Part shown: one piece after another, positions 1 to 63,270 of the stretch
Layout of the letters: each line of letters starts with the position of its first letter
Numbering within the stretch: position 1 is the first letter of the stretch
Assembly: GCF_988242995.1 (NCBI RefSeq)
Contig: NZ_OZ547043.1
Reading direction: 5' to 3' (one strand)
Length of the DNA stretch: 64,000 nt
Position numbers and translations under genes: made by a program
Notes under the pieces: model-generated
Databases searched by the model: none
Told to the model about the DNA's origin: nothing
What the model saw: the letters and a program-made list of their open reading frames with translations, nothing else

Positions 1-452
1 CGTTTAAGGAGGTTTCAGCAGTAAGCCTGAATGGTGTTGCCGGAGGTAACGGTTTTTGTATCGACAGTTTTGATATTCAGTTCGATAACAAACTCCAGAC
101 ACAGCGTTGTATCGGGACTGGCTCGCCTTATGCAGGAGCAAATATTCCGACTACTTTTACACCGTCCGGTACGGTGACGCTTTCATGGTCTAAAGCCGCG
201 TGGGAAATCTGGAGTAAAACACTGACTGGAGAAACAGTTCCGTTCAGCTTCACGCTTTCGAATGGAGAGGGGGCATACACTTTCAGTTTCCCGAAGGTTC
301 AGGTGTCAGGTGAATGGCCTGATGGGGGTAATAGCGACATTATCCAGGTTCAATTGAGCATTACCGCAGCAGATGAAGCACCTACGATAACCAGAAAAAA
401 AAATTCCCCGGCTGCCGTGATCGCAAAAGCCAGTGCTGAGGCGATTAGTTGA
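1..452 (+). CDS. Phage major tail protein (lambda V-like), 3' fragment; the gene starts upstream of the window
   Basis: Reading frame is open from position 3 to the stop at 450-452; it sits immediately upstream of the G/GT-H-M-L-K-I-J block, as V does in lambda. Identity inferred from position only. Confidence 0.45.
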   Translation, partial: FKEVSAVSLNGVAGGNGFCIDSFDIQFDNKLQTQRCIGTGSPYAGANIPTTFTPSGTVTLSWSKAAWEIWSKTLTGETVPFSFTLSNGEGAYTFSFPKVQVSGEWPDGGNSDIIQVQLSITAADEAPTITRKKNSPAAVIAKASAEAIS

Positions 453-500
453 TTTTCCGTTATTCCTCCTGTGGTACTGCCCTACAGGGGGACGCATTGA

Positions 501-962
501 ATGAGGTTATGGATGTTTATTCTTAATCAGAAAATTATCATTGGTGGAGAACGCTGGTTTACGCCAATGAAGGACTTAAAACCTGTAGACGGGTTAAAAC
601 TGTTGGTGGTAAGCAGCGATAACGATCAGTATCGCTCCCGTAATGCATTAATCCGTCGCCACATTGAGAAAATGGATGCCAGTTTGCACGTCGGAACGAA
701 GGAGTTTGATATTTCAAAGGTTTCCGAGGTGGATTCTGTTGATGATTTACTCATTGATAATGCCGCTCGTTATCTGCTGAAAGACTGGAAAGGGGTTGGT
801 GAACTGGTTAATGGTGTTGAGGTTGCACTGGAATATACGGCAGAACGAGGGATCGCGCTGCTTAAGCAGAATCCAGAGTTGTACTGGCAGATCCTTGCAG
901 AAGCAGCCAGCATCGCCCAGGGTAAAGAGCAGCAGAAGCAGGATACGATAAAAAAGCCATAG
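501..962 (+). CDS. Tail assembly chaperone (lambda G-like)
   Basis: 153-aa ORF directly upstream of the tape measure gene; it ends just after an in-frame A_AAA_AAG slippery heptamer, and the -1 frame continues open into the next ORF (G/GT architecture). Confidence 0.6.
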   Translation: MRLWMFILNQKIIIGGERWFTPMKDLKPVDGLKLLVVSSDNDQYRSRNALIRRHIEKMDASLHVGTKEFDISKVSEVDSVDDLLIDNAARYLLKDWKGVGELVNGVEVALEYTAERGIALLKQNPELYWQILAEAASIAQGKEQQKQDTIKKP

Positions 963-1270
963 CTGCCCAGCGGTGGTTATCGGAGTTCGGGGGAGAAAGG
1001 GGGGAAAAGGCAAGATGGAAGCGAGAAAAACTCAGGTTGCCACCGATACCGGAACCAGAAATAGACCCGGTGCTTAAGGAGTTGTTGTACGCCTATTCGG
1101 TAATATCCCGTGCCCGACGTTATGCTGGAATGGCTGGGGTGCCTTTGCCTTTATCTCTGACAGAGATAAATGAATATTTAGCCACTCATCCGGTATTGAT
1201 TGAGCGCGATGAATTTGAAGCAGTGATCTTTGCACTGGATGACCAGTATTTTCAGGAGCAGTGTGTGTAG
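501..1270 (+). CDS. Tail assembly chaperone GT fusion, predicted product of a programmed -1 ribosomal frameshift
   Basis: The -1 frame is open from 956 through the 77-aa ORF 1037-1270 (which the track starts at TTG); I checked codon by codon for stops between 956 and 1037 and found none. Confidence 0.45.
950..956 (+). other. Putative -1 frameshift slippery heptamer A_AAA_AAG
   Basis: Codons ata-aaa-aag sit in the G frame at 948-956, three codons before the G stop; the heptamer is the same type as the dnaX frameshift site. Confidence 0.5.
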
Positions 1271-1390
1271 TTGTTAATTACGTACACTCTGTTACAGAGA
1301 TGTGATTGTGTCTTTAATTAAATCGATGATGCTCCTGGAGAAAAGCATTGCGTGGCCTCGTAATCGCTATATCTACTATTATGTCGCCTG

Positions 1391-1416
1391 AAACCCACTT
1401 CGCGGTGGGTTTTTTG
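1391..1416 (+). terminator. Terminator-like hairpin plus T-tract about 20 nt upstream of the tape measure start
   Basis: aacccac-ttcgcg-gtgggtt stem-loop followed by TTTTTTG; an AGGAG ribosome-binding site follows before the ATG at 1436. Confidence 0.35.
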
Positions 1417-1435
1417 TTGTCAGGAGTTTTAATAA

Positions 1436-4400
1436 ATGGCAGAGCAAACCTCGCGTCTCGCAATAATTATTGATAGCACTGGAGCGAAAAATAATGCTGA
1501 CAATCTGACCTCCTCATTAGTCAAAATGACGCAGGCTGGGGAAACTGCTGCAAATAGCGCAGGGAAAGTGACTAAGGCAACAGAAGATGAGAAGAACGCG
1601 CTCGCAAAATTAAAAGCAGCTATTGATCCAGTTGGTGCCGCAATTGATACTGTCGGTCGACGCTATTCTGAATTAAAGAAATTTTTCGATAAAGGGCTTA
1701 TTGATAAAGAAGAATATGAATTTCTTGTCCGTAAACTTAATGAAACCACAGAGGAATTGAGCGGGGTTGCGCAAGCGCAGAGAGAAGCCGAGAAGGCCGG
1801 AAAACTTGCTGCCGCCCAGCAGGAAGCGCAGGCTCAGGCCTTTCAAAGAATGCTGGACAAGATCGACCCTCTGGCTGCGGCGCTAAGAAATCTTGAACAA
1901 CAGCATGATGAACTTAATGCTGCGTTTGCATCCGGGAAAATAAATGGTTCTCAGTTTGAGAATTATAGCCGAAAAATACAGGAAACACGGCGAGAGCTTA
2001 CCGGAGAGGCTCAGGCAGAGCGAGAAGCAGCAAAAGCGCATGATGAACAGGTTGTTGCTTTGCAACGTCTGATTGCTCAACTTGATCCTGTCGGAACTGC
2101 TTTTAATCGTCTGGTAGAACAACAGAAACAGCTCAATGAAGCAAAAGCTAAGGGGATGCTTTCTCCTGAAATGTATGAGGAGCTTTCTGGAAAACTTCGT
2201 GCTATGCGGAGTGAGCTTGAGGTTACTCAATCACAATTAAGCAAAACCGGAATGTCGGCAAAACAAACGGCTTTTGCTATGCGCATGTTGCCTGCACAAA
2301 TGACGGATATTGTTGTTGGGTTGTCCACTGGTCAGTCGCCATTTATGGTGTTAATGCAGCAGGGCGGCCAGCTAAAAGATATGTTCGGTGGGATTGGCCC
2401 GGCGATCAAAGGTGTAGGTTCTTATGTGCTGGGATTAATTAATCCTTTTACCCTGGCCGCAGCAGCCGTTGGGGTCTTAGGACTGGCTTACTATAAAGGC
2501 TCTCAGGAGCAGGACGAATTTAATAAATCTCTTATTCTTACCGGAAATCAGTTGGGGACAACCAGCGGGCAATTGGGCGATATAGCTCAACGTGCCGGGA
2601 ATGCGGCTGATTCGACAACTGGTGCTGCGGCGGCAGTATTAAATCAGCTTGTGCGTTCGGGAAAGGTAGCGAGCAGTTCGCTGGAGCAAGTGACGACAGC
2701 GATAGTAAAAACGAGCGAAGTAACAGGAATATCAACCGAACAACTGGTTAATGACTTCAATGAAATTGCAAAGGATCCTGTCAGTGCCATATCAAAACTT
2801 AATGATCAGTACCATTTTCTGACACTTGCGACTTATAACCAGATTAAGGCGCTACAGGATGAAGGGAACCAGCAGGAGGCCGCCCGCATTGCGACAGAAG
2901 AATACTCATCCTCAATGATCCAGCGCACCAACCAGATTAAAGAAAATCTTGGTTATCTTGAGACTGCATGGAAAGCTGTCGCAGACTCCGCAAAATGGGC
3001 ATGGGATTCCATGCTGGATATTGGCCGTGAGGCCTCCCTTGATCAAAAAATCTCAGATGTTCTCCGTCAAATTGATGAAATAGAAAAAAATACCCGACCC
3101 GGAGTTTTCGGGTTAGGTGGCATTGGAGATGGCGGAGCTCAAAATAAAAGGCTGGCACGATTAAAGCAGCAATTGGGCGTACTTCAAGCAGAAAAAATTG
3201 CTCAGGACGTACTAAATTCATCAATAAACGATTACAACAAGCGACAACAGGAAGGAATTGAACTCAGACAGAGAGCAGATGCCTTTTCAAAACAATATCA
3301 GACCCGGGAGCAGCAGAGAGCTAGTGAACTTGCAAAACTGGAAAAGCTAAAGAATCAGTATTCAAAGGAAGAATATAATAATCTTATCGCTCAAATAAAT
3401 GAGCGTTATAAAGATCCAAAGCAACCAAAGGCGAAAGGTTATTCTGATGATGCAGCCCAACGAATGATTGATCATCTGAATCAACAGAATGCGTTACTAA
3501 GTTCACAAGCTGAGTTGACCGTTAAATTAAGTTCCTCTGAACAGGAACTGGTTAAGTGGCGTCAGCGGATTGCCGACCTAGAGTCACGACCATCATCGAA
3601 ATTAACCCAGGATCAGAAATCGCTTCTCTTACACCGGGAAGAAATAACCGCGTTGATGGAGAAAAATGTTGCGATTGAAAAGAATAACAGGCTAATCAAG
3701 GAATCCGCCGAAATAACAGCATGGCGTGATTCATTGCAGGCTTCGATTGATAATCGTCAGCAGGGGTATGATATTCAGATTGCTGGTTATGGGGTTGGCG
3801 ATAAAAATCAGCAACGCCAGCAGGAATTACTGCGGATTGAACATGGATATAACAATCAGCGTCTGCAACTTGAACGTGACTATGCAGATAAATCCCGTGG
3901 AATGTCAGATCATGTTTTTCAAGAGAAAATGCAGGCTCTGAATGATGCTCTGGAACGGGAAAAAGAAATTGTCAGACAGAAAAACGAGCAGCTCGATATT
4001 CAGGCAGGAGACTGGGTTAGTGGTGCCTCCCAGGGATTCAATAACTGGCTGGATGACACTAAGGATATCAGTGAGCAGATAAAATCAACCACGACTCAGA
4101 TGTTTGATGGGATGACCGATGCGCTGGGTGATTTTGTCACGACAGGCAAGGCAAATTTTCGTTCTTTCGCTACTTCCGTGATTTCGGATCTTAGTCGAAT
4201 AGCATTAAAGGCTTCAATTACTGGGATTTTCGACAGCATTAGTAACAGTTCTTCTGGGGGGATTTTAGGAACTATCGGGAGTGCTATTAGTAAATTTATT
4301 CCGAATGCAAAGGGCGGTGTTTATGAGTCTCCGTCATTGAGCACGTATTCGAACGGTATTTATGATTCCCCGCAATTTTTTGCTTTTGCAAAAGGGGCTG

Positions 4401-4669
4401 GTGTTTTTGGTGAGGCTGGACCGGAAGCCATTATGCCATTAACACGAACTTCCGATGGTTCTCTTGGTGTCAGAGCTATTAATAGTAAAAGTGGTAATGG
4501 AGGCGGAGATATTACCTATGCCCCTGTATACCAAATCACTATTCAAAATGACGGCCAGAATGGAGAGATTGGCCCTCAGGCAATAAAAGCACTTATGGGG
4601 ATGGTTGATCAGCGGGTGCAGGGCACTCTGTTAAATATGCGACGTGATGGGGGAATGTTAAGTGGCTAA
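1436..4669 (+). CDS. Phage tail tape measure protein (lambda H-like)
   Basis: 1077-aa ORF, coiled-coil-rich N-terminal half and Gly-rich C-terminal part; sits between G/GT and M. Confidence 0.85.
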
Positions 4670-5000
4670 TACGGAAGAATTTCACTGGTTACCAGAGGAT
4701 GGAATGAAAACAGAAAATAAACCATCGATAAAAACTGTAAGATTTGGCGATGGTTATGAGCAACGAAGTCCAAATGGACTTAATCATTCTCTGCGCGTTT
4801 TCACCTGTGATTTCAAAGTTGAGGCGAATGAACGTGATTCATTTGAAAAATTTTTAGCCCGGCATGAAGGCTATAAATCTTTTTTTTGGCGCCCGCCGGG
4901 TATTAACAGAAAAATCAGAGTGGTGTGTCGAACGTGGTCAGCGACAGAACATATCACCTATACCGATTTTTCGTGTCAGTTTGACGAAGTGGTGATCTGA
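4662..5000 (+). CDS. Minor tail protein M
   Basis: 112 aa; [10 protein letters not shown]...KSFFWRPP motifs resemble lambda gpM as I recall it; overlaps the H stop. Confidence 0.85.
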
Positions 5001-5698
5001 TGCAGGACATACAACAGGAAACACTGAATGAATGCATTCGGGCGGAGCAGTCGGCCAGCGTGGTGCTCTGGGAAATCGACCTGACAGAGGTTGGCGGGGA
5101 TCGCTACTTTTTCTGCAATGAGCAGAATGAAAAAGGTGAGTCTGTCACCTGGCAGAGTCGGCAGTATCAGGCCTATCCCATTCAGGGGAGTGGATTTGAG
5201 ATGAACGGCAAAGGTGCCAGTGCAAGGCCAACACTGAAAGTATCTAACCTGCACGGCATGGTCACCGGGATGGTGGAGGATTTACAGAGTCTGGTCGGCG
5301 GAACAGTCGTCCGGCGTAAGGTCTACGCCCGTTTTCTGGATGCGGTGAACTTCGTCAACGGAAACAGAGACGCCGATCCGGAGCAGGAGGTGATCAGCCG
5401 CTGGCGCATTGAGCAGTGCAGCGAACTGAGCGCGGTGAGTGCCTCTTTTGTACTGTCCACGCCGACGGAAACGGACGGCGCTGTTTTTCCGGGACGTATC
5501 ATGCTGGCCAACACCTGCACCTGGACCTATCGCGGCGATGAGTGCGGTTATCACGGTCCGGCGGTCGCGGATGAATATGACCAGCCAACGTCCGATATCA
5601 CGAAGGATAAATGCAGCAAATGCCTGAGCGGTTGTAAGTTCCGCAATAACGTCGGCAACTTTGGCGGCTTCCTTTCCATTAACAAACTTTCGCAGTAA
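5000..5698 (+). CDS. Minor tail protein L
   Basis: 232 aa, lambda gpL-like with a Cys-rich C-terminus (CTWTYRGDECGY...CSKCLSGCKF); start overlaps the M stop. Confidence 0.85.
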   Translation: MQDIQQETLNECIRAEQSASVVLWEIDLTEVGGDRYFFCNEQNEKGESVTWQSRQYQAYPIQGSGFEMNGKGASARPTLKVSNLHGMVTGMVEDLQSLVGGTVVRRKVYARFLDAVNFVNGNRDADPEQEVISRWRIEQCSELSAVSASFVLSTPTETDGAVFPGRIMLANTCTWTYRGDECGYHGPAVADEYDQPTSDITKDKCSKCLSGCKFRNNVGNFGGFLSINKLSQ

Positions 5699-5702
5699 TC
5701 CC

Positions 5703-6446
5703 ATGACAGAGACAGAATCAGCGATTCTGGCGCACGCCCGGCGATGTGCGCCAGCGGAGTCGTGCGGCTTCGTGGTAAGCACGCCGGAGGGGGAAAGATA
5801 TTTCCCCTGCGTGAATATCTCCGGTGAGCCGGAGGCGTATTTCCGTATGTCGCCGGAAGACTGGCTGCAGGCAGAAATGCAGGGTGAGATTGTGGCGCTG
5901 GTCCACAGCCACCCCGGTGGTCTGCCCTGGCTGAGTGAGGCCGACCGGCGGCTGCAGGTGCAGAGTGATTTGCCGTGGTGGCTGGTCTGCCGGGGGGCGA
6001 TTCATAAGTTCCGCTGTGTGCCGCATCTCACCGGGCGGCGCTTTGAGCACGGGGTGACGGACTGTTACACGCTGTTCCGGGATGCTTATCATCTGGCGGG
6101 GATTGAGATGCCGGATTTTCATCGCGAGGATGACTGGTGGCGTCACGGTCAGAATCTCTATCTGGATAATCTGGAGGCCACAGGGCTGTATCAGGTGCCG
6201 TTGTCATCAGCACAACCGGGCGATGTGCTGCTGTGCTGTTTTGGTTCATCGGTGCCGAATCATGCCGCCATTTACTGTGGTGATGGCGAGCTGCTGCACC
6301 ATATTCCTGAACAACTGAGCAAACGAGAGAGGTATACCGACAAATGGCAGCGACGCACACACTCCCTCTGGCGTCACCGGGCATGGCGCGCATCTGCCTT
6401 TACGGGGATTTACAACGATTTGGTCGCCGCATCGACCTTCGTGTGA
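5703..6446 (+). CDS. Tail assembly protein K (NlpC/P60-JAB-like)
   Basis: Start chosen at the internal ATG (MTETESAILAHARRCAPAESCGF...), in frame with the track ORF 5661-6446 (track start is TTG); contains an HSHPGG motif. Confidence 0.8.
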   Translation: MTETESAILAHARRCAPAESCGFVVSTPEGERYFPCVNISGEPEAYFRMSPEDWLQAEMQGEIVALVHSHPGGLPWLSEADRRLQVQSDLPWWLVCRGAIHKFRCVPHLTGRRFEHGVTDCYTLFRDAYHLAGIEMPDFHREDDWWRHGQNLYLDNLEATGLYQVPLSSAQPGDVLLCCFGSSVPNHAAIYCGDGELLHHIPEQLSKRERYTDKWQRRTHSLWRHRAWRASAFTGIYNDLVAASTFV

Positions 6447-6985
6447 AAACGGGGGCTGAAGCCATCCGGGCGCTGGCCACACAGCTCCCGGCGTTTCGTC
6501 AGAAACTGAGCGACGGCTGGTATCAGGTACGGATTGCCGGGCGTGATACAGGTGAAACGGAATTATCAGCCCGTCTTAATGAACCGCTGGCAAATGGTGC
6601 TGTGATCCATATCGTGCCGCGTCTGGCAGGAGCCAAAAGTGGCGGTGTGTTTCAGGCTGTGCTGGGGGCGGCTGTTATGGCGGTTGCTATATGGATGCCG
6701 GGGGTAGGAATTATGGCGAGTAATCTGCTGTTTTCTCTCGGTGCCAGTATGACGCTTGGCGGTGTTGCACAGATGCTGGCCCCTAAACCCAAAACCCCCC
6801 GCACACAGACAACGGATAACGGCAAACAGAACACCTATTTTTCTTCACTGGATAATATGGTTGCCCAGGGCAATGTTCTGCCCGTTCTGTACGGTGAAAT
6901 GCGCGTGGGATCACGTGTGGTATCTCAGGAGATCAGCACAGCAGATGAAGGTGATGGTGGTCAGGTTGTGGTGATTGGTCGCTGA
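6344..6985 (+). CDS. Tail assembly protein I
   Basis: 213 aa starting MAATHTLPLASPGMARICLYGDLQRFGRR, lambda gpI-like; overlaps the end of K as in lambda. Confidence 0.85.
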   Translation: MAATHTLPLASPGMARICLYGDLQRFGRRIDLRVKTGAEAIRALATQLPAFRQKLSDGWYQVRIAGRDTGETELSARLNEPLANGAVIHIVPRLAGAKSGGVFQAVLGAAVMAVAIWMPGVGIMASNLLFSLGASMTLGGVAQMLAPKPKTPRTQTTDNGKQNTYFSSLDNMVAQGNVLPVLYGEMRVGSRVVSQEISTADEGDGGQVVVIGR

Positions 6986-7004
6986 TGAAAAACGTTTTAT
7001 GTGA

Positions 7005-7030
7005 AACCGCCTCCGGGCGGTTTTATCGTT
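7005..7030 (+). terminator. Terminator-like hairpin between I and J
   Basis: aaccgcc-tccg-ggcggtt stem-loop followed by a T-rich run, 16-40 nt upstream of the J start. Confidence 0.3.
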
Positions 7031-7045
7031 TATGGAGCATGACGA

Positions 7046-10000
7046 ATGGGTAAAGGCAGCAGTAAGGGGCATACCCCGCGCGAAGCGAAGGACAACCTGA
7101 AGTCCACGCAGCTGCTGAGTGTGATCGATGCCATCAGCGAAGGGCCGGTTGAAGGTCCGGTGGATGGATTAAAAAGCGTGCTGCTGAACAGTACGCCGGT
7201 GCTGGACAGTGAGGGGAATACCAATATATCCGGCGTCACGGTGGTGTTCCGGGCCGGTGAGCAGGAGCAGACTCCGCCGGAGGGATTTGAATCCTCCGGT
7301 TCCGAGACGGTGCTGGGTACGGAAGTGAAATATGACACGCCGATCACCCGCACCATCACGTCGGCAAACATCGACCGTCTGCGCTTTACCTTCGGTGTGC
7401 AGGCACTGGTGGAAACCACCTCAAAGGGGGACAGGAATCCATCGGAAGTCCGCCTGCTGGTTCAGATACAACGTAACGGTGGCTGGGTGACGGAAAAAGA
7501 CATCACCATTAAGGGTAAAACCACCTCGCAGTATCTGGCCTCAGTGGTGGTGGATAACCTGCCGCCGCGCCCGTTTAATATCCGGATGCGCAGGATGACG
7601 CCGGACAGCACCACAGACCAGCTGCAGAACAAAACGCTCTGGTCGTCATACACCGAAATCATCGATGTGAAACAGTGCTACCCGAACACGGCACTGGTCG
7701 GCGTGCAGGTGGACTCGGAGCAGTTCGGCAGCCAGCAGGTGAGCCGTAATTATCATCTGCGCGGGCGTATTCTGCAGGTGCCGTCGAACTATAACCCGCA
7801 GACGCGGCAATACAGCGGTATCTGGGACGGGACGTTTAAACCGGCATACAGCAACAACATGGCCTGGTGTCTGTGGGATATGCTGACCCATCCGCGCTAC
7901 GGCATGGGGAAGCGTCTCGGTGCGGCGGATGTGGACAAATGGGCGCTGTATGTCATCGGCCAGAATTGCGACCAGTCGGTGCCGGATGGCTTTGGTGGCA
8001 CGGAGCCTCGCATCACCTGTAATGCCTGGCTGACCACGCAGCGCAAGGCGTGGGATGTGCTCAGTGATTTCTGCTCGGCGATGCGCTGTATGCCGGTATG
8101 GAACGGGCAGACGCTGACGTTCGTGCAGGACCGGCCATCGGATAAGGTGTGGACCTATAACCGCAGTAATGTGGTGATGCCGGATGATGGCGCGCCGTTC
8201 CGCTACAGCTTCAGCGCCCTGAAGGACCGTCATAATGCCGTTGAGGTGAACTGGATTGACCCGAATAACGGCTGGGAGACGGCGACAGAGCTTGTGGAGG
8301 ACACGCAGGCCATTGCCCGTTACGGTCGTAACGTCACGAAGATGGATGCCTTTGGCTGTACCAGCCGGGGGCAGGCACACCGCGCCGGGCTGTGGCTGAT
8401 TAAAACAGAACTGCTGGAAACGCAGACCGTGGATTTCAGCGTCGGCGCAGAAGGGCTTCGCCATGTACCGGGTGATGTTATTGAAATCTGCGATGATGAC
8501 TATGCGGGGATCAGCATTGGCGGGCGCGTGCTGGCGGTGAACAGCCAGACCCGGACGCTGACGCTCGACCGTGAAATCACGCTGCCATCCTCCGGTACCA
8601 CGCTGATAAGCCTGGTTGACGGGCAGGGGAGTCCGGTCAGCGTGGAGGTTCAGTCCGTCACCGACGGCGTGAAGGTGAAAGTGAGTCGGGTTCCTGACGG
8701 CGTTGCCGGATACAGCGTGTGGGGGCTGAAGCTGCCGACGCTGCGCCAGCGCCTGTTCCGCTGTGTGAGTATCCGTGAGAACGATGACGGCACGTATGCC
8801 ATCACTGCCGTGCAGCATGTACCGGAAAAAGAAGCCATCGTGGATAACGGGGCGCACTTTGACGGCGACCAGAGCGGCACGGTGAATGGTGTCACGCCGC
8901 CAGCGGTGCAGCACCTGACCGCCGAAGTCACCGCAGACAGCGGGGAATACCAGGTGCTGGCGCGCTGGGATACGCCGAAGGTGGTGAAGGGCGTGAGCTT
9001 TATGCTTCGCCTGACCGTGGCAGCGGATGACGGCAGTGAGCGGCTGGTCAGCACGGCCCGGACGACGGAAACCACATACCGCTTCAGGCAGCTGGCTCTG
9101 GGAAATTACAGTCTGACAGTCCGGGCGGTAAATGCGTGGGGGCAGCAGGGCGATCCGGCGTCGGTATCGTTCCGGATTGCCGCACCGGCAGCGCCATCGC
9201 GGATTGAGCTGACGCCGGGCTATTTTCAGATAACCGCCACGCCGCATCTTGCGGTTTATGATCCGACGGTACAGTTTGAGTTCTGGTTCTCGGAAAATCG
9301 GATTGCGGATATCAGGCAGGTTGAAACCAGCGCGCGTTATCTTGGCACGGCGCTGTACTGGATAGCCGCCAGTATCAATATCAAACCGGGCCATGATTAT
9401 TATTTTTACGTTCGCAGTGTGAACACCGTCGGCAAATCGACATTCGTGGAGGCTGTCGGTCGGGCGAGCGATGATGCGGAAGGTTACCTGGATTTTTTCA
9501 AAGGCAAGATAACCGAATCTCATCTCGGCAAGGAGTTGCTGGAAAAAGTCGACCTGACGGAGGATAACGCCAGCAGACTGGATGAGTTTTCGAAAGAGTG
9601 GAAGGATGCCAACGATAAATGGAATGCCATGTGGGCTGTCAAAATTGAGCAGACCAAAGACGGCAAACATTATGTCGCGGGTATTGGCCTCAGCATGGAG
9701 GATACAGAGGAAGGCAAACTGAGTCAGTTTCTGGTTGCCGCCAATCGTATCGCGTTTATTGACCCGGCAAACGGGAATGAAACGCCGATGTTTGTGGCGC
9801 AGGGCAATCAGATATTCATGAACGAAGTGTTCCTGAAATATCTGACGGCTCCCACCATTACCAGCGGCGGTAATCCTCCGGCATTTTCCCTGACACCGGA
9901 CGGGCGGCTGACGGCGAAAAATGCCGATATCAGCGGTAACGTGAATGCGAACTCCGGGACGCTCAACAACGTCACGATTAACGAGAACTGCCGGGTTCTG

Positions 10001-10441
10001 GGAAAACTGTCCGCGAACCAGATTGAAGGCGATCTCGTTAAAACAGTGGGCAAAGCTTTCCCCCGTGACTCCCGGGCACCGGAGCGGTGGCCATCAGGGA
10101 CCATTACCGTCAGGGTTTATGACGATCAGCCGTTTGACCGGCAAATTGTTATTCCGGCGGTGGCATTCAGTGGCGCTAAGCATGAGAGAGAGCATACTGA
10201 TATTTACTCCTCATGCCGTCTGATAGTGCGGAAAAACGGTGCTGAAATTTATAACCGTACCGCGCTGGATAATACGCTGATTTACAGTGGCGTTATTGAT
10301 ATGCCTGCCGGTCACGGTCACATGACACTGGAGTTTTCGGTGTCAGCATGGCTGGTAAATGGCTGGTATCCCACAGCAAGTATCAGCGATTTGCTGGTTG
10401 TTGTGATGAAGAAAGCCACTGCAGGCATCACGATTAGCTGA
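7046..10441 (+). CDS. Host specificity protein J (central tail fibre / tip attachment protein)
   Basis: 1131-aa ORF; N-terminus [34 protein letters not shown] and most of the length are lambda J-like from memory; the last ~150 aa diverge. Confidence 0.9.
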
Positions 10442-10460
10442 ATTTTATAACCCAGATACG

Positions 10461-10487
10461 GGCACCAGAAATGGTGCCTTTTTTATT
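10461..10487 (+). terminator. Intrinsic terminator downstream of J
   Basis: ggcacc-agaaat-ggtgcc hairpin followed by TTTTTTATT. Confidence 0.6.
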
Positions 10488-10508
10488 GCAGAAAAGCGAG
10501 AGGTAATT

Positions 10509-11108
10509 ATGCGTAAATTATGTGCTGTTATTCTGTCCGCAGTAGTCTGGCTGGTTGCCGCTGGTACGCCAGCGAGCGCAGCAGAGCATCAGTCCACACT
10601 AAGCGCCGGGTATCTTCAGACCCATACTGATATGCCAGGCAGTGATGACCTGAAGGGCATTAACGTGAAATACCGTTATGAATTTACGGACATGCTGGGG
10701 CTGGTGACGTCATTCAGTTATGCCAATGCCAAAGATGAGCAAAGAACGCATTACAGCGATACCCGCTGGCATGAAGATTCAGTGCGTAACCGCTGGTTCA
10801 GCATGATGGCGGGGCCATCTGTACGCGTGAATGAATGGTTCAGTGCTTATGCGATGGCAGGTGTGGCTTACAGCCGTGTTTCGACGTTCTCCGGGGATTA
10901 TCTCCGCGTAACTGACAACAAGGGGAAAACGCACGATGTGCTGACCGGAAGTGATGACGATCGCCACAGCAACACGTCTCTGGCGTGGGGAGCTGGCGTG
11001 CAGTTTAACCCGACCGAATCCGTGGCCATTGATATTGCTTATGAAGGCTCCGGCAGTGGCGACTGGCGCACTGACGGTTTCATCGTGGGTGTCGGTTATA
11101 AGTTCTGA
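10509..11108 (+). CDS. lom: Lom-like outer membrane beta-barrel protein (Ail/Lom/PagC family)
   Basis: 199 aa with a signal peptide and a C-terminal aromatic residue (…VGVGYKF); lambda lom position between J and stf; bracketed by terminator hairpins. Confidence 0.8.
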   Translation: MRKLCAVILSAVVWLVAAGTPASAAEHQSTLSAGYLQTHTDMPGSDDLKGINVKYRYEFTDMLGLVTSFSYANAKDEQRTHYSDTRWHEDSVRNRWFSMMAGPSVRVNEWFSAYAMAGVAYSRVSTFSGDYLRVTDNKGKTHDVLTGSDDDRHSNTSLAWGAGVQFNPTESVAIDIAYEGSGSGDWRTDGFIVGVGYKF

Positions 11109-11134
11109 TTAGCCAGGTAACACAGTGTTATGAC

Positions 11135-11162
11135 AGCCCGCCGGTTCAGGCGGGCTTTTTTG
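11135..11162 (+). terminator. Intrinsic terminator downstream of lom
   Basis: agcccgcc-ggttcag-gcgggct hairpin followed by TTTTTTG. Confidence 0.6.
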
Positions 11163-11166
11163 TGGA

Positions 11167-13530
11167 GTGGATATGGCAGCAGTAAAAATCTCAGGTGTGC
11201 TGAAAGATGGTGCGGGAAAACCAATACAGAACTGCACTATTCAACTGAAGGCAAAGCGTAACAGCACCACGGTACTGGTGAACACGGTGGCCTCTGAAAA
11301 TCCGGATGAAGCCGGGCGTTACAGCATGGATGTTGAGTATGGTCAGTACAGCGTCACCCTGCTGGTTGAAGGTTTTCCGCCTTCACATGCCGGGACCATT
11401 ACCGTCTATGAAGGTTCCAGACCAGGTACGCTGAATGATTTTCTCGGTGCCATGACGGAAGATGATGTCATGCCGGAGGCATTGCGTCGTTTTGAGGCAA
11501 TGGTGGAAGAAGCGGCACGCAACGCCGAAGCCGCCTCTCAGAGCGCAGCAGCGGCAAAGAAATCCGAAACTGCAGCGGCATCATCGAAGAACGCGGCGAA
11601 AACCTCAGAAACAAATGCAGCTAACAGCGCACAGGCGGCAGCGTCCTCGCAGACTGCATCGGCAAACTCCGCGACAGCAGCCAAAAAATCAGAAACCAAC
11701 GCGAAAAATAGCGAGACAGCCGCAAAGACGAGCGAAACCAACGCAAAGTCCAGCCAGACGGCAGCGAAAACAAGCGAAACGAATGCCAAAGCCAGTGAAA
11801 CTGCGGCAAAAAACAGCCAGGTTGCAGCAGCCCAAAGCGAGAGCGCGGCAGCCGGTTCTGCGACTTCAGCAGCTGGATCAGCAACTGCTGCGGCTAACAG
11901 CCAGAAAGCTGCGAAGACGAGTGAAACTAACGCAAAGTCCAGCCAGACGGCAGCGAAGACCAGCGAAACGAATGCCAAAGCCAGCGAAACTGCGGCGAAA
12001 AACAGTCAGGATGCAGCAGCCCAAAGCGAGAGTGCTGCAGCTGGTTCTGCCACTGCATCAGCCAACAGTCAAAAAGCAGCAAAAACCAGTGAAACCAATG
12101 CAAAGACAAGCGAGACTGCAGCGGCGAACTCGGCGAAAGCATCCGCTGCAAGCCAGACCGCTGCAAAAGCAAGTGAAGACGCAGCCAGAGAGTATGCAAG
12201 CCAGGCAGCAGATCCGTATAAATATGTCTTACAGCCGCTGCCTGATGTGTGGATACCGTTTAACGATTCACTGGATATGATTACGGGCTTTTCGCCATCA
12301 TATAAAAAGATTGTTATTGGTGACGACGAAATAACGATGCCTGGCGACAAGATTGTTAAGTTTAAACGTGCATCGAAAGCAACCTATATTAACAAATCTG
12401 GTGTGTTGACAGAGGCTGCCATTGATGAGCCACGATTTGAACGTGATGGCCTGCTTATTGAGGGGCAAAGAACTAATCTTCTGCTTAATTCAACAAATCC
12501 ATCTAAATGGAATAAGTCAGGCAATCTGGAACTCACAGAAATATCCACGGATTCTTTTAATTTTACTTATGGGAGATTTACTGTAAAAGATACTCTTATT
12601 GGTCAGACAAGTGCTATTAATATCGTAACGATTTCTGGCAGTAAAGGGTTTGATGTCACAGGTGATGAAAAATATGTGACCATTTCATGCCGTGTAAGAA
12701 GTGATGTTGAAAATATAAGGTGTCGTTTAAGATTTGAACACCATGATGGTTATACTTACACTTTTTTGGGAGATGCTTACCTCAATTTATCAACACTTGT
12801 AATTGATAAAACTGGTACTGCTGCAGACCGTATTATTGCAAAGGCTGTAAAAGATGAGGTTACTGGTTGGATTTTCTATCAGGCTACAATTAATGCACTA
12901 GATACAGAGAGCATGATTGGTGCGATGGTTCAATACGCTCCTGTAAAAGGTTCAGGTACAGCATCTGGAGACTATCTGGATATCGCAACTCCACAAGTGG
13001 AAGGTGGATCAAGTGCTTCGTCATTTATTGTAACTGATATAACTGCAAGCACTCGCGCAAGCGATATGGTGACAGTCCCAATCAAGAATAACCTTTATAA
13101 TCTTCCTTTTACGGTTCTTTGTGAGGTACATAAGAACTGGTATAAAACGCCAAATGCAGCACCGCGTGTTTTTGATACCGGCGGTCATCAAACCGGAGCG
13201 GCTATTATTCTTGGCTTCGGTCGTTCAACAGATTACGACGGATTTCCTTATTGTGATATAGGTTTGGCTAACAGACGGGTAAACGAAAACGCATCGCTTG
13301 AAAAAATGGTTATGGGGATGCGTGTAAAGTCAGATCAGTCTACGTGCTCAGTAAGTAACGGGCGTATATCCAGCGAAAAGAAAGCCACATGGTCCTATAT
13401 TCAGAACTCCGCAATTATCCGTATTGGAGGCCAGACTACAGCCGGGTTGCGTCATTTATTTGGTCATGTCAGGAATTTCAGAATATGGCACAAGGCATTG
13501 ACTGATGCTCAGATGGGGGAGTCAATCTAA
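11167..13530 (+). CDS. stf: Side tail fibre protein (Stf-like) with a replaced C-terminal receptor-binding region
   Basis: 787 aa; N-terminal region with Ala/Ser/Thr-rich KTSETNAK-type repeats typical of Stf; the C-terminal ~400 aa are markedly AT-richer by eye and end in a motif (GHVRNFRIWHKALTDAQM) reminiscent of ConA/LamG-like lectin folds. Confidence 0.8.
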   Translation: MDMAAVKISGVLKDGAGKPIQNCTIQLKAKRNSTTVLVNTVASENPDEAGRYSMDVEYGQYSVTLLVEGFPPSHAGTITVYEGSRPGTLNDFLGAMTEDDVMPEALRRFEAMVEEAARNAEAASQSAAAAKKSETAAASSKNAAKTSETNAANSAQAAASSQTASANSATAAKKSETNAKNSETAAKTSETNAKSSQTAAKTSETNAKASETAAKNSQVAAAQSESAAAGSATSAAGSATAAANSQKAAKTSETNAKSSQTAAKTSETNAKASETAAKNSQDAAAQSESAAAGSATASANSQKAAKTSETNAKTSETAAANSAKASAASQTAAKASEDAAREYASQAADPYKYVLQPLPDVWIPFNDSLDMITGFSPSYKKIVIGDDEITMPGDKIVKFKRASKATYINKSGVLTEAAIDEPRFERDGLLIEGQRTNLLLNSTNPSKWNKSGNLELTEISTDSFNFTYGRFTVKDTLIGQTSAINIVTISGSKGFDVTGDEKYVTISCRVRSDVENIRCRLRFEHHDGYTYTFLGDAYLNLSTLVIDKTGTAADRIIAKAVKDEVTGWIFYQATINALDTESMIGAMVQYAPVKGSGTASGDYLDIATPQVEGGSSASSFIVTDITASTRASDMVTVPIKNNLYNLPFTVLCEVHKNWYKTPNAAPRVFDTGGHQTGAAIILGFGRSTDYDGFPYCDIGLANRRVNENASLEKMVMGMRVKSDQSTCSVSNGRISSEKKATWSYIQNSAIIRIGGQTTAGLRHLFGHVRNFRIWHKALTDAQMGESI

Positions 13531-13811
13531 TGAAAGATTTAACACTCAAATTTGCAGACAGGGCCGACTTTTCGGCCTTTATGGATAGCATTGGCTATTA
13601 TGATGACGAGTCGATGCAGGATGATATTCTTATTGACGTGATAGGTAACGTGTACAAAGAAACCGGAGAACTGACTGAAGATGGCGAACCGGTATGTGTT
13701 AAGGAAGACGGATATTTTGTAAACGTGCGCATCATTAATGATGCAAAAAAATCGTCAATATTCGATGAATACGCGGTTGTAGTTGAACATCAACTTCGTG
13801 GCTGGATGTGA
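13530..13811 (+). CDS. Hypothetical acidic 93-aa protein; possible tail-fibre chaperone
   Basis: ATG overlaps the stf stop (TAATG), suggesting translational coupling; no family recognised. Confidence 0.4.
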   Translation: MKDLTLKFADRADFSAFMDSIGYYDDESMQDDILIDVIGNVYKETGELTEDGEPVCVKEDGYFVNVRIINDAKKSSIFDEYAVVVEHQLRGWM

Positions 13812-13820
13812 GGGAGACAA

Positions 13821-14525
13821 ATGGCTACATCGACAGTAATTCCAGGAGACATCACCACGTTAAAGGGAGATGTCAGTAAAGCCAAGGAAGATATTTCCTC
13901 AATTAACGGAAAAGTATCAACGCTTCAGGCTGATATGACCAGTGCAAAGCAGGATATCAGCACCAGATACACAAAAACTGAAGTTGATAATAAGCTGAAA
14001 AACAAACTGGAAGTGAACGCTCTGGAAAGCGGTCGTTATGGTGGAGATTTTTACCCGTTGACTGGCCGTGAAGCGTTTTATTTGTGGGGATTGGGCACGA
14101 CTACAGCGGCGGCAAACCTTTATCTTAATCCTGACCCCGCAATTTCGTCTGTGCTGCGGTCAACATCGTCTATCCGCTATAAACATTCAGTAGAGACAAT
14201 AGATTCAGAGCACGCCGAACTCATTTTCAGGATGCGCCCTGTGTGGTACAGGTCACAATGCGAAAATGACAGGCGTGACTGGGGATTCTACGGATTGATT
14301 GCCGAGGAAGTAGGAGAAATTGCCCCTCAGTTTGTACACTGGCGACCAGCTAACGAAGATGATGCACCGGAAGCTATTTCCAGCAATGGCCTTGTTGCCG
14401 AAGGTGTAATGTACGAACGTCTGGTTGTTCCACTGATTCACCATATCCAGAAGCTGACTGAAAGAGTTGATGAACTTGAGTCAGAATTAAAGTTGTTATC
14501 CGTTTCCCGAAGCGATATCGGATAA
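13821..14525 (+). CDS. Short fibre-like protein: N-terminal coiled coil plus C-terminal intramolecular-chaperone (peptidase S74-like) domain
   Basis: 234 aa; heptad-repeat N-terminus; C-terminal region (RPVWYRSQ...WGFYGLIAEEVGEIAPQFV...MYERLVVPLIHHIQKLTERVDELESEL) matches, from memory, the self-cleaving chaperone domain of endosialidase and T5 L-shaped tail fibres. Confidence 0.5.
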   Translation: MATSTVIPGDITTLKGDVSKAKEDISSINGKVSTLQADMTSAKQDISTRYTKTEVDNKLKNKLEVNALESGRYGGDFYPLTGREAFYLWGLGTTTAAANLYLNPDPAISSVLRSTSSIRYKHSVETIDSEHAELIFRMRPVWYRSQCENDRRDWGFYGLIAEEVGEIAPQFVHWRPANEDDAPEAISSNGLVAEGVMYERLVVPLIHHIQKLTERVDELESELKLLSVSRSDIG

Positions 14526-14839: not shown

Positions 14840-14968
14840 GCTGTATATGCAACGGAGGAAGAAACCCCGTTGCTGGAAGCCTGGAAAAAGTATCGGATGC
14901 TGCTGAACCGTGTTGATACATCAACTGCACCTGATATTGAGTGGCCTACGAACCCTGTCAGGGAGTAA
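14840..14968 (+). pseudogene. tfa: 3' remnant of a tail fibre assembly gene (tfa), lacking start and N-terminal part
   Basis: Frame-2 translation gives ...[36 protein letters not shown], which matches the conserved C-terminus of lambda/P2-type Tfa proteins as I recall it; an in-frame stop lies immediately upstream (14837-14839). Confidence 0.55.
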
Positions 14969-15180: not shown

Positions 15181-16038
15181 CTAATTGGGTGATGACAAAT
15201 CCTGTGTATGGGTGTTTCCCTTTGTGCGTGCGTTGATGCTGGTAACGGTGAACGTCATGATGAACACAACCGCGAATAAGACGACAATCGTCGGAGCTGG
15301 TGCACTGTCGATAAAAAAGGACAACCAGACACCAGTCATTGACACTATTACCGATATGCCAATCGCCAGTAGGAGCGCAATATGAAAGCGTTGTGTCAGG
15401 AGTACCGCAATGGCGCCAGGCGCAATGAGCAGAGAAATGGAGAGAATGATACCTACCGCTTTCAGCGTCGCCACAATGGTCAGAGAGACCATGCACAGCA
15501 GCCCATAATGCAGACATCTCGTATGCAAACCGCTTACCTGCGCCTGTTGATAATCAAAGCTGAACAGCAAAAAATCCCGCCATTTTACGCTAATAACAAG
15601 TGTAACCAGCCCGGCAATAATCACCGTCTGGATTATATCGCCGATGGTTACCCCGAGCATGTCGCCGAAAAGAATATGGTCAAGATGTACGTCTGGTTTG
15701 ACTGCAATATACAAGATCAGACCTGCGGCAAACATGCCAGAAAAAACAATCCCCATCACTGTATCTTGCTTGATTCGGCTGTTGTCTTTCAGGTATCCCG
15801 TCGCCACCGCGCAGAATACTCCGGCGACGAATGCCCCTGTAGCCAGAGGTAACCCCAGAATCCAGGCAAGCACGATGCCAGGAAAAACCGCATGACTCAT
15901 CGCGTCACCCATCAGTGCCCAACCTTTCAGGACCAGAAAGACCGACAGCAGCGCACAGGGTATGGAAACTACCAGTGAAATCAGCAGTGCGTGACTCATA
16001 AAGGTGAACTGCAGTGGCTCCAGTAATAATGCCATCAT
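15181..16038 (-). CDS. sitD: Mn/Fe ABC transporter permease SitD
   Basis: 285-aa polytopic membrane protein of the ABC-3 (ZnuB/MntB) type; last gene of a four-gene operon with overlapping stop/start codons. Confidence 0.8.
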   Translation of the reverse strand: MMALLLEPLQFTFMSHALLISLVVSIPCALLSVFLVLKGWALMGDAMSHAVFPGIVLAWILGLPLATGAFVAGVFCAVATGYLKDNSRIKQDTVMGIVFSGMFAAGLILYIAVKPDVHLDHILFGDMLGVTIGDIIQTVIIAGLVTLVISVKWRDFLLFSFDYQQAQVSGLHTRCLHYGLLCMVSLTIVATLKAVGIILSISLLIAPGAIAVLLTQRFHIALLLAIGISVIVSMTGVWLSFFIDSAPAPTIVVLFAVVFIMTFTVTSINARTKGNTHTQDLSSPN

Positions 16039-33049: not shown

Positions 33050-33762
33050 AATAAATATCCTCCGGCATAGCCGGAGGTTTTTCAAATGCGCCTATAAGGC
33101 TCTCTTACCAGCCGCGCCCTAACAGGCGCACACGATCTGACATTTGCATCCAACTTCGTTACTTACGGCCCGTAAACGGGCTGCCCGGATAGGGAATCGA
33201 TAACTGCTCTCCCATTTTATCCTCTTCAAGCTGGTGCTTTATGTAATCCTGTATCTTCGCCGTGTTCTTACCCACTGTATCGACGTAGTACCCTCTGCAC
33301 CAGAACTCCCTGTTCCTGTATTTGAATTTCAAATCACCAAACTGCTCGTAAAGCATCAGACTGCTTTTCCCTTTCAGATATCCCATAAACCCGGATACGC
33401 TCATTTTGGGCGGGATCTCCACAAGCATATGGATATGATCTGCACAGCATTCAGCTTCCAGAATCCGTACGCTTTTCCACTCACACAGCTTTCTCAAAAT
33501 ACTGCCTATTGCTCTACGCTTCTCTCTGTAGAACACCTGTCTTCGGTATTTTGGCGCAAAAACTATGTGATATTTACAGTTCCATCGGGTGTGCGCTAAG
33601 CTCTTTTCGTTCCCCATTGGGACCCCCTTTTGATTTCTTGTTTGACACTTGCAGTTGCCAGACCGCAAAGTGTTTTAACAAATCAAAAGGGGTTTTAATA
33701 ACTGGCTCAAAGCTGAAAGCTTTCCGGAACCCCCAGCCTAGCTGGGGGTTTTCTGTGCACAA
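33050..33762 (-). mobile_element. IS200-type insertion sequence (IS200/IS605 family), copy A
   Basis: ~713-bp unit whose reverse complement matches 62558-63270 along its whole length by eye; encodes a 152-aa HuH Y1 transposase; sits between convergent feaB and tynA. Confidence 0.8.
33159..33617 (-). CDS. tnpA: IS200/IS605-family transposase TnpA (Y1 HuH)
   Basis: 152 aa from MGNEKSLAHTRWNCKYHIVFAPKYRRQVFY; the track ORF has an upstream extension. Confidence 0.85.
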   Translation of the reverse strand: MGNEKSLAHTRWNCKYHIVFAPKYRRQVFYREKRRAIGSILRKLCEWKSVRILEAECCADHIHMLVEIPPKMSVSGFMGYLKGKSSLMLYEQFGDLKFKYRNREFWCRGYYVDTVGKNTAKIQDYIKHQLEEDKMGEQLSIPYPGSPFTGRK

Positions 33763-62528: not shown

Positions 62529-62559
62529 AACCCGGTAAGCATTTAGCGCCGGGTTTTTT
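62529..62559 (+). terminator. Intrinsic terminator downstream of hrpA
   Basis: aacccgg-loop-ccgggtt hairpin followed by T6; IS200 copy B begins in or directly after the T-tract. Confidence 0.5.
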
Positions 62560-63270
62560 GTGCACAGAAAACCCCCAGCTAGGCTGGGGGTTCCGGAAAG
62601 CTTTCAGCTTTGAGCCAGTTATTAAAACCCCTTTTGATTTGTTAAAACACTTTGCGGTCTGGCAACTGCAAGTGTCAAACAAGAAATCAAAAGGGGGTCC
62701 CAATGGGGAACGAAAAGAGCTTAGCGCACACCCGATGGAACTGTAAATATCACATAGTTTTTGCGCCAAAATACCGAAGACAGGTGTTCTACAGAGAGAA
62801 GCGTAGAGCAATAGGCAGTATTTTGAGAAAGCTGTGTGAGTGGAAAAGCGTACGGATTCTGGAAGCTGAATGCTGTGCAGATTATATCCATATGCTTGTG
62901 GAGATCCCGCCCAAAATGAGCGTATCCGGCTTTATGGGATATCTGAAAGGGAAAAGCAGTCTGATGCTTTACGAGCAGTTTGGTGATTTGAAATTCAAAT
63001 ACAGGAACAGGGAGTTCTGGTGCAGAGGGTACTACGTCGATACAGTGGGTAAGAACACGGCGAAGATACAGGATTACATAAAGCACCAGCTTGAAGAGGA
63101 TAAAATGGGAGAGCAGTTATCGATTCCCTATCCGGGCAGCCCGTTTACGGGCCGTAAGTAACGAAGTTGGATGCAAATGTCAGATCGTGTGCGCCTGTTA
63201 GGGCGCGGCTGGTAAGAGAGCCTTATAGGCGCATTTGAAAAACCTCCGGCTATGCCGGAGGATATTTATT
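62558..63270 (+). mobile_element. IS200-type insertion sequence (IS200/IS605 family), copy B
   Basis: ~713 bp, reverse complement of copy A (33050-33762); the transposases differ at one residue (Tyr vs His in CCAD[Y/H]IHML). Confidence 0.8.
62703..63161 (+). CDS. tnpA: IS200/IS605-family transposase TnpA (Y1 HuH)
   Basis: 152 aa from MGNEKSLAHTRWNCKYHIVFAPKYRRQVFY. Confidence 0.85.
   Translation: MGNEKSLAHTRWNCKYHIVFAPKYRRQVFYREKRRAIGSILRKLCEWKSVRILEAECCADYIHMLVEIPPKMSVSGFMGYLKGKSSLMLYEQFGDLKFKYRNREFWCRGYYVDTVGKNTAKIQDYIKHQLEEDKMGEQLSIPYPGSPFTGRK

Follow-up and report, generated by a model that had tools for sequence, protein, structure and literature searches.

A hairpin between tail genes I and J

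The late genes of lambdoid phages are transcribed from the promoter pR′ by a Q-modified polymerase that is resistant to terminators (PMC7547250). In a preliminary description of the 64,000-nt stretch of DNA studied here (the window), a terminator-like hairpin was proposed to lie inside a tail operon, as an aaccgcc/ggcggtt stem followed by a T-rich run just upstream of tail gene J. This proposal raises the question of whether the element is real, and of what a terminator could be doing in an operon that is read in this way. The window carries a lambda-like tail operon on its + strand, at approximately 500-13530, and the element occupies the 60-nt gap between gene I, whose TGA stop codon lies at 6983-6985, and J, whose ATG begins at 7046, as given by the sequence and the list of open reading frames (ORFs). 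The features of this junction are as follows.

6344-6985, + strand: tail assembly gene I, 213 aa (from the ORF list; the homologous region is annotated as gpI or tail assembly protein in lambda, Ayreon and E. coli)
7001-7026, + strand: I-J stem-loop, GUGAAACCGCC-UCCG-GGCGGUUUUAU (from the sequence, RNAfold, the scored scan and alignment A7)
7021-7031, + strand: U-rich tract UUUUAUCGUUU following the stem (from the sequence; conserved in 35 haplotypes)
7034-7048, + strand: ribosome-binding site (RBS) GGAG of J (7034-7037) and its start codon ATG (7046-7048) (from the sequence; in OM418627, the corresponding site of lambda, at the J start, carries an RBS annotation)
7046-10441, + strand: J ORF

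The two arms, aaccgcc (7005-7011) and ggcggtt (7016-7022), enclose the loop tccg (7012-7015) and are followed by ttttatcgttt (7021-7031). The core of the stem has five G-C pairs (7007-7011 with 7016-7020) and three A-U pairs (7004-7006 with 7021-7023), and is capped by a UNCG-type tetraloop, C(UCCG)G; the three outermost pairs of the stem-loop are weak and mostly wobble. The initial three to four U nucleotides of UUUUAUCGUUU double as partners of the upstream A nucleotides. The tract is interrupted, with U at 8 of the 12 positions that follow the G-C core and a modest T-score of 3.81, and it ends 3 nt before the GGAG of J. The stem begins 15-21 nt past the stop codon of I, ends upstream of the RBS of J and is co-oriented with I. 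In form, position and orientation, the element thus fits an intrinsic terminator, as had been proposed: a G-C-rich stem-loop on the transcribed strand, with a U-rich tract directly 3′ of the stem, located after a stop codon, co-oriented with the genes and outside coding sequence.

The predicted fold agrees with this description. In RNAfold, the centroid structure of the I-J RNA consists of this hairpin alone (11 bp, -17.4 kcal/mol), and the core of the stem contributes -7.8 kcal/mol in the scored scan described below. The 71-nt region has a z-score of -2.36, and equally good folding was found in 3 of 200 shuffles. A longer helix in the minimum-free-energy structure, which pairs AAACG with CGUUU and extends into the RBS of J, has an ensemble frequency of 0.11 and is absent from the centroid; variation within this helix looks like CpG decay.

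We considered several other identities for the gap. A terminator on the minus strand is unlikely, since the fold is poorer there, no U-run is adjacent and there is no positive-scoring match on that strand. The ORF list and a scan of the window revealed no ORF and no promoter-like site in the gap, and coding on either strand (e.g., by an antisense ORF at 6911-7072) is disfavoured because close relatives have one-base indels in the spacer. Searches of Rfam with window positions 1-14000 and with seven related I-J loci yielded no match to the gap at E<=1. Of the prophage small RNAs, AgvB and AsxR map to the pR′ moron site and Pas to the neighbourhood of the Q and lysis genes, rather than to I-J; by match or by position, the hairpin is none of the described RNAs that we considered (Rfam; AgvB/AsxR, Pas, STnc100). 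Within this region it is also no dispersed repeat of the REP or BIME type, as the window contains only one copy, and lambda likewise, with up to three mismatches allowed.

Terminator-like hairpins in the tail operon

To each hairpin-plus-tail we assigned a d score in the style of d'Aubenton-Carafa, using ViennaRNA with Turner-2004 energies; the cut-off on d is approximate, as modern energies are combined with a threshold from 1990, and lambda tR′ is missed. Within window positions 1-14000, four sites reach d>=6 (at 1394, 7007, 10461 and 11136), all of them on the + strand and intergenic, whereas 40 dinucleotide shuffles of the same region give an expectation of 0.17 +/- 0.44 sites. Per 60-nt gap and strand, the chance expectation is approximately 0.0004 such sites. 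The I-J hairpin is therefore confirmed as real, in that it exceeds what chance would produce. The four hairpins are distributed over the operon as follows.

501-962 and 1037-1270, + strand: chaperone-like ORFs
1390-1419, + strand: pre-H terminator-like hairpin, AAACCCAC-UUCG-CGGUGGGUUU, with U-run (d = 17.4)
1436-4669, + strand: H
4662-5000, + strand: M
5000-5698, + strand: L
5661-6446, + strand: K
7001-7031, + strand: I-J hairpin and U-rich tract (d = 6.1)
10460-10485, + strand: J-lom terminator-like hairpin (10460-10479) with U6 (d = 34.0; terminator annotated at the equivalent site of Ayreon)
10509-11108, + strand: lom
11135-11162, + strand: lom-stf terminator-like hairpin (11135-11156) with U6 (d = 42.8; terminator annotated at the equivalent site of Ayreon)
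from 11167, + strand: stf

The idea that hairpins punctuate the tail operon thus holds: from H to stf there are exactly four, all of them intergenic and on the coding strand, and the three others named in the preliminary description are present (pre-H at approximately 1390-1413, J-lom at 10460-10479 and lom-stf at 11135-11156). Its remark that the J-lom and lom-stf terminators are more conventional than the I-J hairpin is borne out by their d scores, 34.0 and 42.8 versus 6.1. Indeed, when both strands of the whole window are scored, 16 sites have a positive d and the I-J hairpin ranks last among them; this weakness, along with its interrupted U-tract, counts against the terminator reading. A simple scan for consensus terminators missed the hairpin, and found 14 sites where 13.5 were expected from shuffles. 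In our own reading, it may have been missed because maximal extension of the stem through G-U and A-U pairs would consume the first U nucleotides of the tail.

The same scoring applied to lambda gave d values of 29.6 for oop, 25.0 for tR2, 7.9 for tI, 40.4 for lom-stf, 9.0 for J-lom and 6.1 for I-J. We take the first three to be matches to known terminators. Lambda (locus L018) also has a + strand terminator-like hairpin after gene D at 6101-6114 (GCCGCCTGTGCGGC followed by U7, d = 22), and another hairpin, UGGCCC-UUCG-GGGCCA, after the major capsid gene E at 7164-7179 (+ strand, d = 4); therefore, intergenic hairpins punctuate the lambda head genes, too.

Some further observations concern the surroundings. 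The pre-H hairpin (1390-1413, with a UUCG loop and U6) is followed by AGGAG and by the ATG of H at 1436, and is housed in a gap of 166 nt between the T-like ORF and H (1270-1436). In the prophage gene order, Q and pR′/tR′ are upstream of the start of the window, hence outside it; both are present in lambda. Elsewhere, the window contains a perfect 713-nt inverted repeat pair, at 33050-33762 and 62558-63270, whose arms are 28.8 kb apart and each carry an ORF (MGNEKSLAHTRWNCKYHIVFAPKYRR...) plus hairpins of their own. This ORF presumably encodes an IS200-type transposase, and we take the genes flanking the 33050-33762 copy to be chromosomal genes resembling feaB and tynA.

Identity with lambda and conservation among relatives

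The I-J hairpin is the same element as one at positions 15464-15481 of lambda (NC_001416). The flanking genes, the 60-nt gap and the stem are equal in the two; the loop is UGCG in lambda in place of UCCG, and two bases of the tail differ. A 351-nt segment spanning the junction (6850-7200) shares 94% identity with lambda and 97% with phage Ayreon. Many E. coli chromosomes contain it with 100% identity, and of 5426 complete E. coli genomes, 4286 have it at >=80% identity. The hairpin is unannotated in the lambda RefSeq record and in the record of lambda h434 imm21. In Ayreon (MF807953), a feature named ‘terminator’ is annotated at 14895-14934, the counterpart of the I-J hairpin, and further such features are located at V-G, J-lom and lom-stf. 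The I-J feature has no experimental qualifier, and we assume it to be a software call. The I-J hairpin thus belongs to an already known kind, and is annotated in the public record of a close relative.

We collected 35 haplotypes of the region from the hairpin to the ATG, from 109 loci with a lambda-type hairpin. The CCGCC/GGCGG stem is invariant in 34 of these haplotypes, the exception (in locus L026) being a single-base insertion in the 5′ arm. What varies is the loop, the fifth base of the tail and both flanks. The loops are nearly always UNCG (UCCG, UGCG, UUCG or UACG), and rarely UCAG or UCCA, and the tail is conserved as UUUU(G/A)UC(G/A)UUU. When the window is compared with relatives of four kinds (Citrobacter-type, Gifsy-1, L115 and L109), the hairpin and tail (7004-7032) are 86-93% identical, versus 39-61% for the upstream spacer, 46-62% for the RBS region and 65-76% for the coding DNA of I and J. 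These comparisons provide good support for the view that the hairpin has been maintained by selection across prophages of E. coli, Salmonella and the Citrobacter type.

Compensatory changes and alternative stems

Alignment A7, which has 15 sequences, contains an 8-bp helix in which pairing reaches 97.5%, as compared with 31-62% in slid controls. In three of the eight pairs, both sides are altered, from A-U to G-C twice and from G-C to A-U once. The covariation score was matched by none of 500 shuffles, and derives from few lineages and few independent events. Covariation within each family alone (alignments A4 and A5) is not significant.

Different stems also occupy this site. In Stx-type phages (BP-4795, 1717 and many contigs), the I-J gap is approximately 250 nt long and ends in ACAGGCA(C/U)CC-UCCG-GG(G/A)UGCCUGU with a U-run, where a C-G pair is exchanged for U-A and U-G intermediates are present. 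In the lineage of loci L204-208, the stem is AAGCCACC-U(A/U)CG-GGUGGCUU with U6; the RBS region is recognisably homologous, and the loop is separated from the ATG by 33 nt, just as in the window. Still other stems are present in loci L209 and L181, where a U7 run comes after each. In L181, L204-208 and L209, the stem and its U6-U7 run are found approximately 25 nt before the ATG of J. A U-run accompanies every independent stem variant at the I-J site. The compensatory changes, the constant U-run and the Ayreon annotation all lend further backing to the original call of a terminator-like element.

The additional sequence of the Stx-type phages (e.g., L004 742-989 in BP-4795, L005 742-1002 in the Stx2 phage 1717, L011 and L116) has features of its own. 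A strong minus-strand terminator, TCCCGCAG...CTGCGGGA with T7, abuts the stop codon of I, the + strand hairpin lies near J, and there is a 30-codon ORF (MKINHREFCFYWPEK...). Phage 1717 has repeats of the heptamer CATCAGA upstream of the J RBS. We found no Rfam match and no promoter-like site in this insert, which could be a degenerate moron or a convergent pair of small RNAs.

More distantly related J loci usually have no such element. In 44 of 50 distinct loci there is no hairpin, and I and J abut or nearly do so, which argues that the hairpin is dispensable for tail assembly. In one class from E. coli and E. albertii, a minus-strand lipoprotein-like gene precedes J and no hairpin is found.

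The same hairpin in unrelated phages

The central 20-mer of the element (window 7005-7024; AACCGCCTCCGGGCGGTTTT, or AACCGCCUCCGGGCGGUUUU as RNA) occurs once in the window and once in lambda. However, it is not confined to this junction. We found exact copies in at least 120 viral contigs of IMG/VR (L259-L378). Among the 123 matches listed, 23 precede a J-like start and 100 are not beside J. The latter, among the matches listed, represent 84 distinct contexts, 80 of which place the 20-mer just after an ORF on the same strand and 60 of which have the start of a same-strand ORF within 80 nt downstream. These copies often continue as a U-run, GGAG and ATG. Because the exact 20-mer recurs after genes in so many unrelated phage contigs, it has the appearance of a generic terminator module: by its contexts, the hairpin is a recurrent, near-optimal small terminator candidate that is not specific to J. 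This recurrence supports the terminator reading, yet it also tempers the argument from conservation, as a stable minimal terminator that is favoured by selection can be kept, or can arise anew, with an identical sequence.

Phage operons seem to use the compact combination of a terminator and an RBS as a frequent module. The pre-J spacer of L204, with its hairpin and RBS (1453-1492; TTCAATAAGCCACCTACGGGTGGCTTTTTTGTTTCTGGAG), is 92.7% identical over 41 nt to a spacer of the Ralstonia phage Albius (L258; MT740726 19225-19265), where it is upstream of the sheath gene of a myophage. This likeness could reflect convergence or the transfer of an intergenic cassette.

Proposed role of the I-J hairpin

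From these features, we infer the activity and the biological role of the hairpin. It is probably a module for Rho-independent (intrinsic) termination among the late (tail) genes of an E. coli prophage resembling lambda. The + strand RNA has a short upstream A-tract, a stem of five G-C and three A-U pairs, a stable C(UNCG)G tetraloop and an interrupted U-tract, and with this layout unmodified E. coli RNA polymerase would be expected to release the transcript approximately 7-9 nt past the G-C stem, at about 7027-7031, before reaching the Shine-Dalgarno sequence of J.

During lytic growth, the hairpin should not split the operon, because Q-modified polymerase ignores such signals; it would be read through, and I and J would still be co-transcribed. 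The hairpin would instead act mainly on polymerase that is not antiterminated, which might originate from stray initiation inside tail genes of a lysogen, from transcription reading in or, in relatives, from the promoters of morons. Its effect would be to insulate J, lom and stf from such stray transcripts. RNA of tail genes G and T has been detected at a low level in uninduced lambda lysogens (PMC2147009), which weakly favours the insulator role.

Translation may modulate this activity. In a reporter based on tR2, the ribosome represses termination at short distances from stop codon to stem, and termination is maximal only beyond approximately 27-30 nt (PMC4824070). Since the I-J stem begins only 15-21 nt past the stop codon, it is conceivable that a ribosome finishing I would partly suppress the hairpin, and termination would then be strongest on untranslated transcripts. 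This short distance also counts against the terminator reading. Slight attenuation and protection of the 3′ end of the upstream RNA are possible secondary effects.

In the literature that we could search, which covered arrays of induced lambda, Term-seq of EHEC, the transcriptome of a Salmonella prophage and ribosome profiling, we found no transcript 3′ ends reported for I-J. According to the preliminary description, uniform transcript coverage across the junction after induction would count against a terminator. We would, on the contrary, expect uniform coverage after induction even for a genuine terminator, because the late polymerase is Q-modified and terminator-resistant, and such a result would not disprove it. 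For annotation, this is a warning that uniform RNA coverage in induced cells does not disprove terminators of this kind.

The hairpin could instead serve during lytic growth itself, despite Q, as a leaky attenuator or an RNA-stability element. A fraction of polymerases would stop there, or the hairpin would block 3′-to-5′ exonucleases after cleavage, such that the upstream tail RNA outlasts or outnumbers J RNA and helps to set protein ratios. The weak score of 6.1 fits a leaky site, and leaky terminators that tune gene dosage have been measured in the Pseudomonas phage LUZ7, where over 60% of sites have an efficiency below 50% and the authors cite a precedent in T7 (PMC9163698). However, it is established knowledge that Q-modified polymerase passes strong terminators across the whole lambda late operon. 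A stability hairpin would moreover need no U-run, yet the U-run persists with every stem variant, and most distant relatives do without any hairpin. We regard attenuation or stabilisation as possible, though on the unlikely side.

Accessory genes at the junction

Under another explanation, the hairpin is the boundary, or the terminator end, of a slot for accessory genes (‘morons’), either left over after the loss of a moron or retained as a homologous right-hand anchor for cassette swaps. By definition, a moron consists of a promoter, a gene and a terminator (PMC3594210), and in phage HK97 the gp15 moron occupies the junction at which the pre-H hairpin is found here (PMC3594210). Several relatives have differing genes inserted between I and the hairpin, as do the Stx-type phages with their 250-nt sequence.

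L027 1084-1434, + strand: AT-rich lipoprotein gene
L114, + strand: 208-aa ORF
L113 1043-1345, - strand: lipoprotein gene
L015 834-1364, - strand: ORF for a SodC-like periplasmic protein (Citrobacter sp. On2M prophage)

The lipoproteins of L113 and L027 are small and differ from one another, and have the lipobox LTGC. The right junction of the inserts is always within a few nucleotides of the hairpin, adjoining the RBS of J, and the site between I and J has the look of a hotspot for genes of lysogenic conversion. The + strand accessory genes, in L027 and L114, end at the I-J hairpin, which is, judging by this arrangement, the obvious candidate for their terminator. The hairpin is not the terminator of the inserts in L113 and L015, because those genes are on the minus strand. 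In the window itself, the gap is only 60 nt long, with no ORF and no promoter-like site, and thus there is no moron here. The strong conservation of the lone hairpin also speaks against a decaying relic. We therefore consider an explanation by the slot alone to be tentative and rather improbable; it is compatible with the terminator explanation, and does not exclude it.

A broader proposal would combine several of these ideas, such that the hairpin is at once a translation-gated insulator, the fixed right edge of an accessory slot and part of an RBS cassette that is mobile between unrelated phages. The mobile cassette is suggested by the 20-mer found ahead of genes in many unrelated contigs, and by the 41-nt version that a J locus has in common with the Ralstonia sheath gene. 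We offer this combination as speculation, and think it distinctly unlikely to hold in full.

The hairpin could also belong to a translation leader of J, in which the hairpin and the U-rich stretch stabilise a processed J mRNA or enhance ribosome (S1) binding. The hairpin adjoins the RBS of J whatever is upstream, with the same 33-nt distance from loop to ATG in the window and the L204 lineage, and the sequence following the 20-mer in unrelated phages often includes GGAG and ATG after the U-run. However, among the matches listed, 24 of the 84 distinct copies not beside J lack an ORF that starts on the same strand in the next 80 nt, there is no promoter or known processing site that would make the hairpin a 5′ end, and most J homologues have no hairpin. 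The terminator reading accounts for the same facts, and a leader function is very unlikely. Finally, the small stem and marginal score might suggest a functionless chance palindrome, which is extremely improbable given the expectation of approximately 0.0004 such sites in the gap, the island of conservation, the compensatory changes and the independent alternative stems at this position, each with its U-run.

We thus favour the intrinsic terminator, and our analysis confirms that lambda-type tail operons have small predicted terminators between their genes, at the pre-H, I-J, J-lom and lom-stf junctions. Taken alone, the I-J hairpin is of little importance. It bears on the question of why operons that are read by terminator-resistant polymerase retain internal terminators, and for this question the site is a convenient test case, as it is tiny, is present in lambda itself and is flanked by accessory genes that are swapped among relatives.

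Comparison with known systems

Moron cassettes were reportedly described by Juhala et al. in 2000. What the window shares with them is the junction, at which relatives carry morons, and the hairpin, which forms the 3′ end of the + strand ones. In contrast, the gap between I and J in the window has neither gene nor promoter, and here the element can represent no more than the terminator of an unoccupied slot.

The lambda terminators oop, tR2 and tI and the J-lom and lom-stf terminators have in common with the I-J hairpin a G-C stem-loop and a U-run, located after a stop codon on the coding strand. The I-J hairpin differs in its shorter G-C stem, its interrupted U-tract and its score, which is 6.1 versus 25-43 for tR2, oop and lom-stf, and is nearest to those of tI (7.9) and lambda J-lom (9.0). 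A further difference is its location within an operon transcribed by antiterminated polymerase.

Another parallel is the P22-like phage L, in which Rho-independent terminators are predicted within a late operon that has a single promoter and is controlled by antitermination, as would be the case for I-J (Zaworski et al., 10.1101/2020.10.05.325894). The phage L terminators belong to another phage group and to other gene junctions, and they are likewise predictions. The authors of that study note that terminators within late operons are common and that their role is unknown, and they propose two roles, namely partial termination, which would suit a leaky attenuator, or the halting of transcription that is not antiterminated (10.1101/2020.10.05.325894), which is the role that we consider probable for the I-J hairpin.
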